A stretch of 64,000 nucleotides of DNA, from IMG/VR virus record IMGVR_UViG_3300003629_000001; one strand, 5' to 3'. Source of the DNA: a virus. Under the pieces are notes generated by a model. That model was not told the origin of the DNA and ran no database searches. It saw nothing but the letters and a program-made list of their open reading frames with translations. Shown one piece after another: positions 2,177-63,063 of the stretch. The position numbers were made by a program, and so were the translations under genes. Position 1 is the first letter of the stretch; every line of letters begins with the position of its first letter.

Positions 2177-3190
2177 ATGCCCGGAAACGCACCATACAAA
2201 CCGGAGCAAGCCACTCTTTCCGTCGCCACGGAGTCTTCACAGGCTTCGACGGTGACGACAGGGAGTGAGTTTGACTCCTTCGGACTCGTACAGGAAGCAA
2301 CGTCGCTCCCTGACCCCTCTATCCAGTGGATTGAAGAGCGGGTCATTGGTGGCGACCGAAAGATTTTCCAGAAGATTGACGGCCAGCGGGCCTACGAAGG
2401 TGGGTCGATTCCCGTTGTCCCTTACGACGGCGCTCCGCTCGCCTACCTCTTCGGAACCGAATCGGTGAACACTGATACGGATATTGATGGGAGTTCGGAA
2501 ACGGGTACTGATACCCACGTCCTGACTATCAATACCGCCGACCTTCCACCGACTCAAACTATCGAAGCCGCCTACAAGGGCTTCGACACCGGTCAAGACA
2601 ATTTCGTTCGGACGTTCAGCGGGTGTGCTGTCAACTCCGGCGAAATCAGCATGAACAACGAGAGCGAACTTCAGGTTTCGCTTGACTATATCGCTATGGA
2701 CGTGGACACCGGTACGTCAATTACGTCCACCACGACGACGCCCTCTGACCGCGACCCGTGGATTTTCGCGGACACGAAAGCTGACCTGACGATGTTCGGT
2801 ACGCCGTTCGCACGCGTCGAACAGTTCTCGTTCTCGCTCACCAACAATCTCGAACAGGGTCGGTACATCCAGTCTGACGACCCGGAGAACCCGTTCGAGT
2901 TGACCTACGCGAGCGCTGAAATCGAAATGTCGGCCACGATTACGATAGACGACGATACGCTCTATCAAGAACTTATTGGCCCGACTGAAGGTGGCTTCAC
3001 AGGCGAGATTGAGTTCGAGAAGCCGAGCGGTGAATCACTCCGCATTACGGCTTCCGACTGTAACTTCGCTGAAGCGCCCCACGAAATTCCGAGTGACGAC
3101 AGCACGATTCAGGTTGACGTGACAATCATTCCTGAAGACCTTGAGATTCGCGTTGAAGACGACCAGTCGGCTGGCGAAACGTATCTCTAA
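2177..3190 (+). CDS. major tail tube protein
   Basis: 337 aa, beta-rich, with 'FSGCAVNSGEIS' and 'FSFSLTNNL' tube-like motifs; precedes the chaperones and tape measure gene. Confidence 0.75.
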   Translation: MPGNAPYKPEQATLSVATESSQASTVTTGSEFDSFGLVQEATSLPDPSIQWIEERVIGGDRKIFQKIDGQRAYEGGSIPVVPYDGAPLAYLFGTESVNTDTDIDGSSETGTDTHVLTINTADLPPTQTIEAAYKGFDTGQDNFVRTFSGCAVNSGEISMNNESELQVSLDYIAMDVDTGTSITSTTTTPSDRDPWIFADTKADLTMFGTPFARVEQFSFSLTNNLEQGRYIQSDDPENPFELTYASAEIEMSATITIDDDTLYQELIGPTEGGFTGEIEFEKPSGESLRITASDCNFAEAPHEIPSDDSTIQVDVTIIPEDLEIRVEDDQSAGETYL

Positions 3191-29243: not shown

Positions 29244-30641
29244 ATGCCCAAGCAAACGATAGAGGGTGAGTCAACGACCGCGACGGTCATGACTGACCAA
29301 TACGACGACAATTGTGGTGAGCAAATTCAGACGATTGCTGACCACGAAGCCTTCGAGAATCCGATAGCCATTATGCCGGACTGTCACTACGGAAGTGGCG
29401 CTGTCATTGGCTTTACCATGTCTATCGGAGAGCGTGTCGTCCCGAACACGGTGGGAGTTGACATTGGCTGTGGCATGACCGCACGCCACCTTGGCGACGA
29501 CCTATTCGCTGACGCTCCCGAGTATATCGGAATGCCGGAGATAGACGAACTCATTCGGAGCAACATTCCGTTCGGGAGAGAGGTGTACGACTACGAGGAA
29601 CAGAACTACCACATTGTAGACGATTTCCCGTGGGACGAATGTCAGGACACCTTCGAGAAGTTCGTAGAGGCTGTTGACTGGCTTGACCAGTCCGACGTAG
29701 ACGAGTTCATGGGGTACGGAAAAGCATACTTCATGGACGTGTGCCAGCGGGTACACTACGACCAGAGTCGGGCTATCAACAGTCTCGGGACGCTTGGTGG
29801 CGGGAATCACTTCGTAGAGATTGCCGAGTCTGAAAAGAACGGTGACTACTGGGTTGTCGTCCACTCGGGGAGTCGGGGTATCGGCCTCTCAATCGCCCAG
29901 CACTGGCAAGATAAGGCGACCCAGTTCACGACCGCTCGGAAGAACATCGAAGACGTTCCCGACGACCTTCGGCCCTACCTCAAGGAGAACTGGAAGCCGG
30001 ACGCTGACGCGATTCGCTCGGATTTCGAGGGCGAAGAGATTCAGCGTATGTTCGACCGTATTAGCGGTGCAATTCAGGAATACGGCCCGAACGCTGACAA
30101 TCGCAACAACGACCTTGACTGGCTGGAAGGCGACGAAGCACTCGGCTACTGTATCGACATGATTTTTGCCCAACGCTACGCGAGCGAGTCACGGCGGATT
30201 ATGGTCGATACCGTTGCTGACCTGATTGGAAACGCTACTGAAGTCGAGTACGTGGAATCCACGCACAATTATATCGACTTTCAGGACGGCATGATTCGCA
30301 AGGGCGCGACGAAGGCCAACGAGGGCGAGCGTCTGATTATCCCGTTCAACATGAGAGACGGTACTATCGTTTGTCGTGGGAAGGGCAACGACGACTGGAA
30401 TATGTCGGCCCCACACGGCGCTGGACGCCGTATGAGTCGAACGCGTGCGTTTTCGGAACTGGACGTAGACGAGTTCCACGACACCATGAGCGACGTGTTC
30501 AGCACTTCGGTCAACGAAGAGACGCTGGACGAAGCCCCCGCCGCCTACAAGGACACCGCTGTCATTGAGTCGGTAATCGAAGAGACAGCGGAAATCGAAG
30601 ACCGCTGGACTCCGGTCATGAACCTCAAGGCCGAAGAGTGA
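29244..30641 (+). CDS. rtcB: RtcB RNA 3'-phosphate/5'-OH ligase
   Basis: MPDCH, GVDIGCG, GGGNHFVE, HSGSRG, HN, RKGA, HGAGR, DEAP.AYK. Confidence 0.95.
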   Translation: MPKQTIEGESTTATVMTDQYDDNCGEQIQTIADHEAFENPIAIMPDCHYGSGAVIGFTMSIGERVVPNTVGVDIGCGMTARHLGDDLFADAPEYIGMPEIDELIRSNIPFGREVYDYEEQNYHIVDDFPWDECQDTFEKFVEAVDWLDQSDVDEFMGYGKAYFMDVCQRVHYDQSRAINSLGTLGGGNHFVEIAESEKNGDYWVVVHSGSRGIGLSIAQHWQDKATQFTTARKNIEDVPDDLRPYLKENWKPDADAIRSDFEGEEIQRMFDRISGAIQEYGPNADNRNNDLDWLEGDEALGYCIDMIFAQRYASESRRIMVDTVADLIGNATEVEYVESTHNYIDFQDGMIRKGATKANEGERLIIPFNMRDGTIVCRGKGNDDWNMSAPHGAGRRMSRTRAFSELDVDEFHDTMSDVFSTSVNEETLDEAPAAYKDTAVIESVIEETAEIEDRWTPVMNLKAEE

Positions 30642-49555: not shown

Positions 49556-49858
49556 ATGGACAAGAAGAGTGACGGCTATCACTTCGAGTTTGCTGGGGTC
49601 GAACTCACGTTGCCTGAAATGGCCGAGAGTGCGTTTGCTATGCTCCGCGACGACGAGGCCGCTGAATCCGACCCGACCGCGTGTGACCACCGTGTTGCTC
49701 TTCCTTACCGTGGTGGCTACGCGTGTGGAACGTGTCACACCGAAGTTGAACTCTCCGCCTGTCGCTACGTATGGGTGAATCTGGATAACGGCGTCGTGAA
49801 AATCGAACTCGGAAAACGACTCGGTGATTTGTTCAGCGATACGGCTACTGAAGACTGA
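49556..49858 (+). CDS. hypothetical Zn-finger protein
   Basis: CDH...CGTC; divergent promoter at 49500-49535. Confidence 0.55.
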   Translation: MDKKSDGYHFEFAGVELTLPEMAESAFAMLRDDEAAESDPTACDHRVALPYRGGYACGTCHTEVELSACRYVWVNLDNGVVKIELGKRLGDLFSDTATED

Positions 49859-49885
49859 AAACCGAAGAAAGTTTGTCGTCGCCCG

Positions 49886-50044
49886 TTACGCCTTTTCGTA
49901 GGTGACGACGCGGTAGTCTCGCTCGTCCGCGAGTTCGTAGGCCGCGTCTTCGTCGGTGGTCGTCACAACCGGGTCGGCTGGGTCGTCGTCGTACACGACG
50001 TACAGGATTCCCGGTGCTTCCGACCGCGAGATTGTTTCACTCAT
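49886..50044 (-). CDS. 52-aa acidic protein
   Basis: MSETISRSEAPGILYVVYDDD...; ATG lies 3 nt after the tRNA-like module. Confidence 0.55.
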   Translation of the reverse strand: MSETISRSEAPGILYVVYDDDPADPVVTTTDEDAAYELADERDYRVVTYEKA

Positions 50045-50046
50045 AA

Positions 50047-50614
50047 AGCACCCACCGGGACTCGAACCCGGTTTAATTCCGGCCTTTCACACCACAGGGC
50101 GCGACGACGCTCCTAACGCACGACGCGAAATCTGTGTCACTTCGGCGCTCGGGTGCTGACCACGCTTGGTTCCGTTCAAGCCCGCACGCCAACGTCAAGG
50201 CGGTGGTCGTGTGCGAGTCACCCGCGAGGTGGGTTCAACCCCTCGAACCGGCTACCGGCACGGGCGAGCGCAAGACGAGTGGTAAGTGCCGTAGACTCCC
50301 GCGACGTGGGCCATTACCCCACGGTTCGGTCGGGAAGGCGCTGGGTGATTGTTGCGACCCAGCCGCACCGAGGTATCGCGCCCTCGGCCACTTCGGCGCT
50401 GGCCCGGTGGCACGCCCGTAAGGGCTTCAGTCGGGTAGTTGACGCCGAGAGGCTGGTATTGAACCAGCCCGTCTCGCTTGAATCCCCCGCCGGGTGTGAC
50501 ACCGGGTACAGTCAGGGGAAAGTTCGCGTCAGGCGTCTACCTCTTACCGGGTAGACTTTGGGGTTCACCTGACGGAACCGGAGCGTGTGTACGCGAGGTC
50601 GCTCCCCGCGTACA
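50047..50614 (-). ncRNA. large structured non-coding RNA with 3' tRNA-like module (unknown family)
   Basis: conserved promoter at 50637-50650(-); no acidic ORF; long-range helices, many hairpins, T-arm CCGGGTTCGAGTCCCGG plus acceptor stem. Confidence 0.65.
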
Positions 50615-50757
50615 TAGTAGTAGCACCCCCTCGAACATAAGTCTTTCCCCATACAGGGATGAACAACGCGGGAAGAAGAATCCGGCTATACTCATATCTT
50701 GTAGTACCCCTATTGGCGAACGCTTTTTAGCCTGTGTTTAGAACCTTATTACAGAGC

Positions 50758-51186: not shown

Positions 51187-51308
51187 CCGCCGTGTCATAC
51201 GGAAATAACGAAACGCCGGTAGAAGGTTTGCCGATTTAAGCGTCAACGAGTCGTATAAACTCCCCACCACGGCTAAACATCTTCCAAACTAAACTAATAA
51301 GATAAATT

Positions 51309-54284
51309 ATGTTTCTATTTGACGGATTTGAAGATGGCGACGTAAATGAGTGGACTACTAATAACTTTGAAGCGAGTACCAACAGAAGTAATAGTGGTTC
51401 ATGGTCAGGTCTTGCTACATATAATAGCGGTACAAATCTCAATACCATTGACGATATACAAGGGTATAGACCGCTTTCTCAAAGAGTCAACTCTGGTACA
51501 TTTACAATAAGTTACTATTGGAACGAGAGTAGTAACGGGAATGGTCACTCGTTCGGTTTTGAAGACTCAAACGGGAATCCGATATGTGCATTGGGTAGTG
51601 ACAACCCACAATGGCTGGTTTTTGATGGAAGTTGGAATACAGTCGATAGCGGTGGTGCTGATTACGGTGATTGGGTTTACGGAGAAGTTACGATAGATTT
51701 TGATAATAACCAATTTGACTATTTCATTTCAGACCAAACATCTACAAAAAGTGTTTCGGGTACGTATAATTTCGCCAATAATGTATCATTAGACCGCGTA
51801 GCGTTGCGGGCAAATAGTAGTAATCGTTATGCGTATATCCAAGACAATACGGATAATAACAACATCGAAGTTTGGATTGACGATATAGAGCATGACGCGC
51901 TCGTATCGGCTCCTTCTACCCCACAGAATCTTACTTCGAGTGTTTCCGGTGATGATATTTCTCTCAATTGGGACGCGGTAAATTGGAATGGGGATAGAGG
52001 GTATTATGAAATTTACCGGGCGGTATCAAGCGGTTCGTCCCGTTCAGATTATACCAGTATAGCCACTGTTCAAGATGGAACGACGAACTATACAGATTCT
52101 TCACTGAATGACGGTGAACGGTATTACTACAGGGTAGACGCCAATAATTCCGCTGGTTCGTCAGGACTATCAAATCAAACGGCTGAAACAACGAGTCTTC
52201 CCGGCCCCAGCAATATTTCTGCTTCAGCGTTAGGTGACGATGTTACTATTTCATGGAATGACAACTCTGACAACGAAGACGGGTTTCAAATTTTTCGGGG
52301 AACCAGTAGTGGGTCACTGTCTTTGTTGGCTACGGTTGGAAGTAATACAACGAGTTACAGTGACAACAATTTGTCGGACGGTGAACGGTACTACTACCGC
52401 GTCGAATCGTACACCGAACACCGGAGTTCGTCAAGTGGTGAAGTAAATGCTCTCACCGGTCTTCCCGCACCCACTTCTCTGTCTCTGAATACGGGTACTG
52501 AAGACCAGATTACTATTTCATGGTCTGACAACTCGGATAATGAAGACGGTTTTGAGATATTCAGGGGAACCAGTAGTGGGTCACTGTCTTCAGTAGCAAC
52601 TGTTGGAAGTAATTCTACCAATTACACAGATAGCGGATTGGCTGACGGTGAACGGTACTACTACCGCGTCGAATCGTACACCGAGCATACGGCTTCGTCA
52701 AGTGGTGAAGTGAGCGGAGTAACGGTTCTCCCAGCCCCGAGTTCGCTATCCACGGCGTCAAACACCGAAGATGAACTGGATTTATCATGGACGAACAACT
52801 CGGATAATGAAGACGGGTTTGAGATATTTCGGGGGACGAGTAGCGGGTCGCTCTCTTCAGTGACAACTGTCAGTGCGGGTTCAACGGCATATACGGATAC
52901 TGGATTGGCTGACGGGGAGAAGTATTTCTACCGCGTCGAATCGTACACCGAGCATACGGCTTCGTCCAGCAATGAAGCGAGCGAAATTACAATTCTCCCG
53001 GCCCCTTCGTCGCTTTCAACGACAACACAGGGAACAGACCAAATCGACCTGTCTTGGACGGATAACAGCGACAATGAAGGAGAGTTCCGAATTGAGCGTG
53101 ATACTGGAAGCGGGTTTAGTCAAATTACTACTGTCACTTCTAATACAATTTCATACTCGGACACTGGCTTGGAATCGAACAGTTCCTACACCTATCGCGT
53201 CAGAGCGGCAACAGTTCATACAACGTCGGGATATAGCAACGAGTCTACTTCTACAACGGATAGATTCGTTGTAACTGAAAGCGGGAATATTACCACTTCA
53301 GTAGGTGTTTCAACAACGTCTACTGAAACCGGAACGCTCCTTTCCCAAACTCTGTTGACAGATTCCACAGCCAGCGTCAATACGCTTACTGAAACGTCTA
53401 CAAAGTTGGTAGGGAGTTCTGTTACGCCGACAACCACAACAACTCAATCCGTATTTGAACAAACAATTTCGCAAGCGGGGGCTGACGTTACGCCGACAAC
53501 CACGACCGTATTCACAGCGGGAACTACTACTCGCTCTACACTTATTACCACTATCAGTTCCGGGCTTGCGAGTCCGATTACAGGTAATTCAGACTCTACA
53601 TTGACTGTTGACGGTAGTATAACGGACGCCACTGGCATTGTGCTATCTGTCGATATTGACGGTTTTGCTCTTGGTGACGCACAAATCACAGACGCGAATC
53701 CGTCGTTGTTGGTGGCTGATAACCTGACCACGGCGGCTTCGGAAAGTGTGGTAACTGGGAGTGTAGCGTCTGTTCAGCAAAATGATGAAATCGGAATTTC
53801 TCGTCCGAATACTGTTCTGACCGAAGGTCAAGCGTCACCACTTCTTCCTTCTGAAGTGGGAACATTAACTGTCATTCCCAGTTTTGTATCCTCTGTCGGA
53901 ACACCGACTACTGTCGAAGAGATAATCACTTCGCTCGAAACCGGTGTGATAACCTCGGCTTCAGCGTCTACCTTCGGGACAAATACAACGACGACAGCAC
54001 AGGGAGAGGCGTTAATAATCAGTGCTACCGGAACACCGTCAACAGCCGGAACATCGGGATTCCAAGAGATTACTGGTCAAGTGACTCTCAATGGAATCGG
54101 TGTTGGTGGGGCTGTCATTTACGTCATTGATACTGAAACTGACAGTATCGTTGGAACCGAAACAACGGATGGGAACGGGGAATATCTTTTGACTGTTCCC
54201 AGCGAACCATTGTATCACGTTACAGTTCAGTACGACGACGGGAGTGAGAAATACAACGCACTCTCGAAACCCTATGTGGACTAA
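51309..54284 (+). CDS. adhesin-like protein: lectin-like N-terminal domain, 5 fibronectin-III repeats, Ser/Thr-rich stalk, C-terminal Ig-like domain
   Basis: five 'P..P..L....I.LSW.DNSDNE.GF.I.R...Y.D..L....YYYRV' units; C-terminal 'ITGQV...GA.I...TTDGNGEY'. Confidence 0.8.
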   Translation: MFLFDGFEDGDVNEWTTNNFEASTNRSNSGSWSGLATYNSGTNLNTIDDIQGYRPLSQRVNSGTFTISYYWNESSNGNGHSFGFEDSNGNPICALGSDNPQWLVFDGSWNTVDSGGADYGDWVYGEVTIDFDNNQFDYFISDQTSTKSVSGTYNFANNVSLDRVALRANSSNRYAYIQDNTDNNNIEVWIDDIEHDALVSAPSTPQNLTSSVSGDDISLNWDAVNWNGDRGYYEIYRAVSSGSSRSDYTSIATVQDGTTNYTDSSLNDGERYYYRVDANNSAGSSGLSNQTAETTSLPGPSNISASALGDDVTISWNDNSDNEDGFQIFRGTSSGSLSLLATVGSNTTSYSDNNLSDGERYYYRVESYTEHRSSSSGEVNALTGLPAPTSLSLNTGTEDQITISWSDNSDNEDGFEIFRGTSSGSLSSVATVGSNSTNYTDSGLADGERYYYRVESYTEHTASSSGEVSGVTVLPAPSSLSTASNTEDELDLSWTNNSDNEDGFEIFRGTSSGSLSSVTTVSAGSTAYTDTGLADGEKYFYRVESYTEHTASSSNEASEITILPAPSSLSTTTQGTDQIDLSWTDNSDNEGEFRIERDTGSGFSQITTVTSNTISYSDTGLESNSSYTYRVRAATVHTTSGYSNESTSTTDRFVVTESGNITTSVGVSTTSTETGTLLSQTLLTDSTASVNTLTETSTKLVGSSVTPTTTTTQSVFEQTISQAGADVTPTTTTVFTAGTTTRSTLITTISSGLASPITGNSDSTLTVDGSITDATGIVLSVDIDGFALGDAQITDANPSLLVADNLTTAASESVVTGSVASVQQNDEIGISRPNTVLTEGQASPLLPSEVGTLTVIPSFVSSVGTPTTVEEIITSLETGVITSASASTFGTNTTTTAQGEALIISATGTPSTAGTSGFQEITGQVTLNGIGVGGAVIYVIDTETDSIVGTETTDGNGEYLLTVPSEPLYHVTVQYDDGSEKYNALSKPYVD

Positions 54285-61402: not shown

Positions 61403-62500
61403 ATGAAAATCGGAGACTACCAAATTGACGGTGACGCACAGGACGACGATGGACAGAACCTCATGGGTATCAGTGGCGCGGACGACCCCGAAGACGTAGA
61501 GGTCGTCGGACAGGCCATTTGGTACACGATTGGTTCCGATTTCGTCATTTCCAGTGATGGGACTGACGGTGACGAGACGGGGCGCGAATGGCTACTCCGC
61601 CGCATGGACGAACTCGAACTACCGGAGTTCATGGCCCCGCCCGAGGTGTCGGCCAAGGGCGCGTTCACGCGAACCCGTGACCACCTCGTCACGCCGCGCA
61701 ACGACGAAGTGACCTTCGACGGTCAGACGGTGGAGTTCGAGACGAAGCGGGCTGGCCGCGACTCGTTCCACCTACTCGCCAACGCGTACTTCACGGCGGA
61801 AGACCTGAACGCGGAAGACGGCGAATGGCGACAGGTCACGGTCGGTGTGTTCCGCTACATGAGCGAACACAAGGCTATGGCGACGGTTCCCAAGATTGAC
61901 CGCGACGACCGGATGTGGGACGCTTGGGAAGCGTTCAGCCAGCGTGCGACGACGCTCATGGACGAAATGGAAGTGTCCCATATCGGTCGGGACATTCAGA
62001 AAATGATGAACCGGTTCACCCACGACTGGACGCACACGGTGAAGTTCCGCGACGGTGGTGCGGTGTACTTCGTTCCGGCCCAGTACAACGACACGCTGGA
62101 CGGCCTCAAGACGCTCATTGAGGAAATCAACGTCCGGTTCAAGACCCACGGACGCGACTGTGAGTTGAAGCGTATCCCGGTCGTCAACGACGACGAACGT
62201 CGGGAAATGGTCGAAGACCGCGCTCGCCAGCACATTGAGTCGAAGGTCGAAGACGCCCTCGACAATGCTATGGAAGCGGTCAAGGCCAACGAAGAGGAAC
62301 TGACCCAAGAGATTATCGCCAGCGCGGAAGAGACGGTCAAAGACGGCGACTCGTTCGCCGCCCAGTACAACGACCTTCTCGACCTTCGACTGTCGGTCGA
62401 AGACGTGCTGGACGAGTTCGCTGACGACATTGAGGGCGGTGTGAAGGGCGAAATCATCGCTGAACTCACGTCCGAAGCGAAGACCGACGGCGGACACTGA
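61403..62500 (+). CDS. DUF6744-like protein
   Basis: 'G...WY..', 'P......AF.R', 'GGAVYFVP', C-terminal coiled coil; preceded by the conserved promoter. Confidence 0.6.
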   Translation: MKIGDYQIDGDAQDDDGQNLMGISGADDPEDVEVVGQAIWYTIGSDFVISSDGTDGDETGREWLLRRMDELELPEFMAPPEVSAKGAFTRTRDHLVTPRNDEVTFDGQTVEFETKRAGRDSFHLLANAYFTAEDLNAEDGEWRQVTVGVFRYMSEHKAMATVPKIDRDDRMWDAWEAFSQRATTLMDEMEVSHIGRDIQKMMNRFTHDWTHTVKFRDGGAVYFVPAQYNDTLDGLKTLIEEINVRFKTHGRDCELKRIPVVNDDERREMVEDRARQHIESKVEDALDNAMEAVKANEEELTQEIIASAEETVKDGDSFAAQYNDLLDLRLSVEDVLDEFADDIEGGVKGEIIAELTSEAKTDGGH

Positions 62501-62523: not shown

Positions 62524-62569
62524 GCACACGTTCGGTGCTTCGCGGGGGCTTCGATTCCCCCGGTGTGCT
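62524..62569 (+). ncRNA. mini tRNA-like element (t-element)
   Basis: GCACAC/GTGTGC stem stacked on CGGGGG-CTTCGATT-CCCCCG (12 bp total, TTCGA loop). Confidence 0.5.
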
Positions 62570-62587: not shown

Positions 62588-63063
62588 ATGCCTGAACACA
62601 GAGGACTGACCTACACAGTAGAACGCGAAGAGAACGACAGTGCCGGTGGCTACGCGTATGAGTTCGTCTTGTACGTCGAAGGCCGCCGCGTCGTCACCGC
62701 CAGCCAACTCGAAGCCCGTGGCGCTCACGGCCCCGAGGACGACGGTGACAACTGGACGAACCAACTCGGTGTGTACGCTATCGCATACATCGACGGCCTC
62801 GAAGCCGAGGTGGACGCATGAGCGACGACGACCTATGCGTTCGGTGTGATACCCCTATTGAGACTGGGGACAGATTCGTGCGTATCCCGACGCCGAACCT
62901 GCTGAACGACGACGCCGAGATTGTCGCTCACGAAGCGTGCGTCCAAGTCGCTCGCAAAGACGCTGTGGGCTTCACGCCCGACGACGGCCACGCTGGTCGG
63001 TTCAACGAAGACGCCGACGGTGAGTGGACGTGGGACGACGAGACGCCCATCAAGCCGGACTGA
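62588..63063 (+). other. two small hypothetical ORFs (62588-62821, 62818-63063)
   Basis: coupled acidic ORFs followed by a T-tract. Confidence 0.55.

Follow-up and report, generated by a model that had tools for sequence, protein, structure and literature searches.

The window, i.e. the whole stretch of DNA that we analyzed (64,000 nucleotides), makes up the right-hand 64 kb of an IMG/VR virus record of 110.7 kb (IMGVR_UViG_3300003629_000001), whose sequence marks it as that of a haloarchaeal tailed virus. The Gp80-like gene matches those of HCTV-1, HATV-2 and HRTV-25, and the genome carries tRNA genes and a gene for an RtcB RNA ligase (window ~29322-30629 (+), 198 bits). Between a gene coding for a 100-aa zinc-finger protein (49556-49858) and the Gp80-like gene lies a cassette on the minus strand, in which a promoter module is separated from a small ORF by a stretch rich in potential helices. 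The features of this cassette, given in the direction of the predicted transcription, together with the other copies of its promoter module, are the following:

50615-50665, minus strand: promoter/operator module, in which an inverted repeat surrounds a BRE/TATA-like block at 50650-50637
50588-50614, minus strand: 5' terminal hairpin H1 of 9-11 bp, which the homolog retains with a single G.U-to-G-C change
50484-50587, minus strand: 5' domain, with H3 (50578-67/50534-22) enclosing H4 (50556-49/50543-35), and H5/H6 (50518-09/50492-84)
50270-50477, minus strand: central multi-helix domain of ~210 nt, with the long-range closing helix H7 (50477-70/50277-70)
50451-50469, minus strand: T-loop hairpin H8, which stacks directly on H7, with two doubly changed pairs and a 7-nt T-loop-like loop that is kept
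50448-42/50399-93, 50388-82/50373-67 and 50361-57/50346-42, minus strand: central-domain helices H9, H12 and H13, to which H14-16 are added
50218-50267, minus strand: inner degenerate t-like element, with an acceptor-like stem of 7 bp, a small hairpin and a hairpin that resembles a T arm but has a non-canonical loop
50157-50217, minus strand: extension, missing in the homolog on contig L079, which holds the 3' strands (50175-61 and 50181-75) of two proposed long-range pairings
50048-50156, minus strand: tRNA-like unit, with acceptor 50156-50150/50054-50048, T arm 50071-50055 and two non-canonical internal hairpins
49886-50044, minus strand: 52-aa ORF, which begins 2 nt past the predicted tRNase Z site
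49857-49870, minus strand: candidate archaeal terminator, a T-rich stretch 3' of the 52-aa ORF, as read from the sequence
41739 (+), 61350 (+), 49514 (-) and 50649 (-) in the window, and 40445 (+) in the genome: copies of the promoter module, each an inverted repeat around the TATA-like block

All the features that a sequence-only reading of this DNA had listed are present in it. The promoter block which that reading placed at 50650-50637 is part of a ~60-nt promoter/operator module that occurs in five full copies in the 110-kb genome. The other four copies lead protein genes, with an ATG 15-25 nt downstream, as against ~570 nt without an ATG at the RNA locus, and spacing places the predicted transcription start near 50614. 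The sequence that follows is GC-rich (65-68% at 50100-50500 vs ~48-61% in the flanks). No Pfam match was recovered in any of its frames, and a six-frame comparison with the homolog described below (tblastx) yields only short pieces with frame switches and stops. As the frames are broken between the homologs and match no Pfam domain, the locus is best described as non-coding, in line with the sequence-only reading, which saw no acidic, haloviral-looking ORF here. Two gene calls on related contigs, one of 57 aa (L079:2298-2471 (-)) and one of 233 aa (L080:2486-3187 (+)), sit in or run across the homologous RNA and are probably spurious, since the window does not preserve their frames.

The minus-strand RNA folds better than its shuffled versions, the check proposed in the sequence-only reading giving minimum free energy z-scores of -3.7 for the full 574 nt, -4.4 for 50614-50157 and -2.35 for the tRNA-like unit. 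The 5' hairpin at 50614-50588 has a pair probability of 0.97, and its prediction thereby holds; the T arm reaches 0.98, the acceptor 0.77 and a long-range closing helix that had been proposed for the RNA 0.78. A 12-mer described as repeated in the locus indeed occurs exactly twice, and with one mismatch allowed at least two copies are seen in 6 of 100 shuffles; the first copy, as the 3' strand, pairs with 50448-42 in a helix that covaries.

The neighboring zinc-finger gene provided the route to a homolog, as a 73%-identical protein is encoded on ten contigs. Among the nine of these listed, six (L079-L082, L084 and L086), all metagenomic contigs of related haloviruses, carry a clear homolog of the RNA, four of them complete and two cut at the contig end. 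In nhmmer searches the homolog is matched with E-values of 4.6e-38 for the promoter and 5' domain and 3.9e-29 for the central part. The ParA genes of the window and the relative share 92% DNA identity and the 124/128-aa proteins of the two viruses are 93% identical, indicating that these are close viruses. Their gene order differs: in the relative the RNA lies 3' of the 124-aa gene, on the one strand common to all genes, and heads a long operon, whereas in the window the promoter-RNA-ORF cassette is inverted and sits between the zinc-finger and Gp80-like genes. Recombination between copies of the promoter module, which is kept at 72% identity in the homolog (L079:2268-2318), could have inverted promoter-led cassettes relative to the L079 virus. 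The two RNAs align collinearly from the promoter to 50218, apart from 176 nt that the relative has inserted at the border of the 5' and central domains, and the relative lacks the last ~170 nt of the window RNA (50217-50047).

Within the scope of two lineages, and with the structure picked by RNAalifold from the same alignment, the consensus fold has 105 pairs, every one of them paired in both sequences (100%); in 15 of them both bases have changed, in 6 a single base via G.U, and none is broken. When partners were slid by 1-3 columns there were only 0-1 doubly changed pairs and 34-49% pairing, and the observed covariation values were reached by none of 500 shuffles. All the doubly changed pairs fall in the central domain, which is 68% identical, and at this identity every substitution in a paired column (36/36) preserves pairing. 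Helices compensated above controls are thus found in two lineages, as expected of a conserved structured RNA, and the compensatory changes for which the sequence-only reading had proposed to look are there. The G.U pairs (9 and 4 in the two sequences) occur exclusively on the promoter strand, and A.C pairs number zero, and the fold is therefore assigned to the promoter strand. Taken with the coding tests, these comparisons indicate that window positions 50047-50650 (-) are a real non-coding structured RNA locus.

The comparison also redraws the architecture of the RNA. The 5' domain (50614-50484), in which H3 and H4 form one long bulged hairpin, is 97% identical to its homolog, with 4 substitutions and single-base indels, against 72% for the promoter, 68% for the central domain and 57-92% for neighboring genes. 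Its helices are invariant and so are beyond the reach of covariation; the 97% identity between less conserved flanks points to constraint on the sequence of this domain as well as on its fold, and such near-invariance suggests a sequence-specific partner. The central domain is closed by H7, and the minimum free energy fold of the homolog taken by itself reproduces its architecture inclusive of this closure. Most of the internal hairpins drawn in the sequence-only reading stand (50556-35, 50469-51, 50388-67, 50363-40 and 50321-07), the majority with compensatory changes, and the CGGCAC/GTGCCG pairing finds no support in the comparison. The long-range pairings proposed in the same reading fare differently. 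Since the relative lacks 50217-50047, it has no partner for either the closing helix 50587-72/50175-61 or the second pairing 50482-76/50181-75, and neither is conserved. The homologous 5' strand of the closing helix, identical to that of the window, folds locally with 50534-22, and in the window the local and long-range pairings of this strand are mutually exclusive. Accordingly, the ~455-nt unit that this helix had been thought to close gives way to the conserved closure at 50477-70/50277-70. By our estimate the 8+6-bp long-range match is unlikely to arise by chance (roughly 0.01-0.03 from counting possible pairs) and may be retained as a predicted feature of the window RNA only.

The tRNA-like unit at the 3' end combines an acceptor of 7 bp with a perfect T stem of 5 bp and a canonical T loop of 7 nt; its discriminator position is 50047. 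It thus has the acceptor coaxial with a T arm and the T-loop consensus that characterize t-elements and mascRNA-type structures. The acceptor and T arm had been recognized in the sequence-only reading, and both are confirmed and rare in shuffled DNA: a scan for acceptor plus T arm across the 110-kb genome returns the real tRNAs and this unit, while shuffled genomes give 0.05-0.17 hits. A looser version of the scan adds one site, at genome 46602-46496 outside the window, which may be a chance match. A second, shorter acceptor register is possible at 50102-50097, rendering the predicted RNase P site ambiguous between 50157/50156 and 50103/50102. The unit is the genome's best match to the mascRNA covariance model, the sole Rfam model to touch it, with 19.9 bits against a cut-off of 42.5 bits and E-values of 0.3 (region) and 0.009 (genome). 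We rejected membership in the mascRNA family, as the score lies under the cut-off and the match is to generic shape. A regular tRNA was likewise rejected: ARAGORN with default settings reports none and, once its thresholds are lowered, nothing but forced models whose 'introns' measure 113-257 nt, and the tRNA model (RF00005) has no match here even at E-values up to 10.

Directly beyond the unit, as had been noticed, stands the ATG of the 52-aa ORF (50044-50042), three bases past the acceptor end at 50048, these being the discriminator 50047 and two U. The inner t-like element (50267-50218), which has a degenerate T loop and adopts the fold listed above in isolation, aligns with the intact terminal t-element of the homolog (L079:2840-2886). 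In the latter the acceptor and the T-arm-like hairpin are 6 bp each, a small hairpin is also present, and one base, UUU and AUG follow. Thus, in both viruses the junction reads UUU-AUG after different t-elements, and is conserved at the nucleotide level around the AUG, while the ORFs that follow are unrelated to each other. This combination of a different t-element, the same spacing and an unrelated ORF fits a processing role. Moreover, a further t-element terminates the insertion in the relative and lies five bases ahead of the helix that closes the central domain, which there has a t-element on either side. Homologs of the 52-aa ORF itself (E 1e-8 to 3e-4, 53-67% identity) sit in ordinary small-gene operons, and the RNA was sought upstream of them and found absent.

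The reading that we favor, and hold to be probable though with moderate confidence, is that RNase P and tRNase Z release the folded RNA and leave a near-leaderless mRNA. The viral promoter would transcribe, from near 50614, a structured RNA of a small halovirus-specific family, and the tRNA-like elements on its 3' side would serve as processing signals. Host RNase P would cut 5' of the tRNA-like unit, in one or the other of its two registers, and tRNase Z would cut after 50047. The mRNA for the 52-aa ORF would then start just 2 nt ahead of its AUG, and the stretch between the two cuts would come off as a small tRNA-like by-product. Most haloarchaeal mRNAs are leaderless. The stable RNA so released is predicted most likely to act in trans, as a protein-binding decoy or as a scaffold with tRNA-like T-loop modules; such a role is favored because of the T-loop modules and the invariant 5' domain. 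If the tRNA-like elements are cut, the virus would punctuate its transcripts with the host's tRNA-maturation enzymes, linking haloarchaeal t-element processing with leaderless mRNAs. As the RNA has a promoter, a homolog and compensatory changes, these proposals are directly testable.

Partial parallels to this arrangement are seen in several known systems. The 3' ends of the long non-coding RNAs MALAT1 (with mascRNA) and NEAT1 (MEN beta), which are eukaryotic and nuclear, are set by RNase P at a tRNA-like unit. They share with the viral locus the succession of a long non-coding RNA and a tRNA-like unit, but no ORF follows their element and the resemblance is that of the generic acceptor/T-arm shape. 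GOLLD and ROOL are large structured phage or prophage RNAs that adjoin tRNAs, and are thus comparable as structured RNAs of several hundred nucleotides in a virus genome with associated tRNA-type elements; the RNA described here does not match their Rfam models, belongs to a virus of an archaeal host, is smaller and represents a far narrower family. In mitochondria, tRNAs between the genes of polycistronic transcripts are cut by RNase P and RNase Z, leaving mRNAs with little or no leader. The viral elements similarly are tRNA-shaped and lie between genes, but they are not functional tRNAs and occur at some gene borders only. A parallel in the form of the elements themselves comes from haloarchaea: RNase P and tRNase Z cleave the t-elements of Haloferax in vivo, and in Haloferax volcanii a t-element precedes 5S rRNA and t-elements were also used to flank an engineered crRNA, which was released (PMC4326828). 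Like those, the viral elements mimic an acceptor and T arm, have no true D or anticodon arm and border another RNA, and the two-sided flanking recurs around the homolog's central domain, making it, if the elements are cut, a natural counterpart to the engineered Haloferax cassettes. They differ in being viral, in bordering a large structured RNA 0-3 nt from a start codon and in having no sequence relation to the Haloferax elements, and their cleavage is a prediction.

The principal alternative is that the RNA stays uncut, as a 5' leader acting in cis on how stable the mRNA of the downstream gene or genes is or how it is translated, with the tRNA-like element as a structural or stabilizing module. 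It would account for the position of the RNA between a promoter and same-strand ORFs in both lineages, including at the head of a long operon in the homolog, for the nucleotide-level conservation of the junction and for the fact that no independent terminator separates RNA from ORF. Against it stand the unrelated downstream ORFs of the two lineages and the homologs of the 52-aa ORF that do without such a leader. An acceptor/T arm 0-3 nt from the AUG would, moreover, block leaderless or SD-led initiation unless removed, haloarchaeal t-elements are cut in vivo (PMC4326828), and the homolog's central domain has t-elements on both of its sides. We therefore regard cis control by an uncut leader as rather unlikely. 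It is very unlikely that the locus is a functionless, decaying relic of degenerate viral tRNA genes with recombination scars between tRNA-like repeats. Several T-arm hairpins, one of the t-like elements being degenerate, and the modular arrangement that is rearranged between lineages are what such decay might leave, but pairing that survives all 36 substitutions at 68% identity with 15 pairs doubly changed, a 5' domain conserved above any neighboring gene and a dedicated promoter that has been retained are not. Finally, a DNA-level element (replication origin or packaging site) or a PATE/MITE-like non-autonomous mobile element, which the GC-rich inverted repeats, the differing place and orientation of the cassette in the two viruses and a PATE expressed as non-coding RNA in another halovirus (PMC10544981) might suggest, is highly improbable, because G.U pairs are confined to the one strand that the promoter drives with no A.C pair, the locus shows no similarity to any record in blastn searches of phage and plasmid collections, and the genome has no paralog of the RNA, the promoter alone being repeated, and no terminal inverted repeats. 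Compensation, strand-specific G.U pairs and lack of other copies thus speak jointly against the relic, DNA-level and mobile-element explanations.

Rfam searches at gathering and E-value thresholds, covering GOLLD, ROOL, SRP RNA, riboswitches and introns, gave only sub-threshold generic matches, which agrees with the prior designation of the RNA as undescribed. The archaeal RNase P RNA model (RF00373) has no match at the locus, its only weak match in the genome being elsewhere (12 bits); a Y RNA/YrlA-type RNA with a Ro partner was rejected because no TROVE match is present in the genome, and a CRISPR-repeat mimic because the resemblance is by eye only and is not kept in the homolog. The terminal t-element of the relative gives a sub-threshold match to a CRISPR repeat model of Rfam (L079:2865-2896 (+), 22.8 bits, E 0.02), probably by chance. 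The nhmmer, HMM and covariance model (R1) searches over ~0.66-0.88 Mb of related virus loci recovered no further member, exact-pattern scans of IMG/VR and JGI metagenomes gave only chance matches in coding DNA, and the RNA is absent near the Gp80-like genes of the isolated haloviruses HCTV-1, HATV-2 and HRTV-25. We found no description of a large structured non-coding RNA of archaeal viruses in the literature searched, and to our knowledge none has been described.

Among loci around Gp80-like genes the sole weak match is a 750-nt non-coding gap at L006:235-985 (+). Part of it (L006:506-632) is homologous to the extension and the first half of the tRNA-like unit (window 50216-50094), with a local alignment score of 30 vs 11.5 +/- 1.3 for shuffles and an nhmmer E-value of 0.003. 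The central domain was sought in L006 and is absent, and the two-sequence fold of the extension from the window and L006 is weak. The gap holds t-like elements at ~238-282, 608-649 and 866/930-966, the last of them 17 nt before an SD-led start. Contig L089 breaks off within the upstream sequence of a 41-aa ORF, and the ~85 nt that it still holds there (2916-3002 (-)), placed where the window has its RNA cassette, resemble L006 ~450-500 by eye; this fragment may be a second type of RNA in the cassette slot. On account of the resemblances in L006 and L089, these RNAs look modular and reshuffled between lineages. The family as presently sampled appears very small, with one further lineage and the partial module homology in L006.

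T-arm hairpins that are not part of tRNAs number 24 in 0.70 Mb of related viruses vs 4 in shuffles. At L042:8694-8720 and L058:5387-5413 just 7 nt separate such a hairpin from an ATG, and at L012:996-1035 an SD-like trailer and then an ATG come after it; all three are candidate t-elements set against start codons. Tentatively, and as something short of probable, we propose that viruses of this clade carry modular structured RNAs bracketed by tRNA-like elements, from which non-coding RNAs such as the ~210-nt central domain would be excised by RNase P and tRNase Z, with the same cuts generating leaderless or short-leader mRNAs. This would amount to a form of tRNA punctuation and to the first family of large structured non-coding RNAs in archaeal viruses.

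Some further observations concern the window and the search material. The contig of locus L041 (JADGEQ010000019.1, 125 kb), which is labeled as a Desulfobacteraceae MAG, has a Gp80-like gene 50% identical to the halovirus family and is possibly a mis-binned virus genome. In the window, the gene for a 991-aa fibronectin-type-III repeat protein begins in a stretch (51200-52000) with a GC content of 37-44%, far under the level elsewhere in the region. Elsewhere in the window, at 62524-62569 (+), a small t-element, made up of an acceptor of 6 bp plus a small and a T-arm-like hairpin, sits in the spacer between an ORF end at 62500 and an ATG at 62589, and its trailer resembles that of the last t-element of L006.
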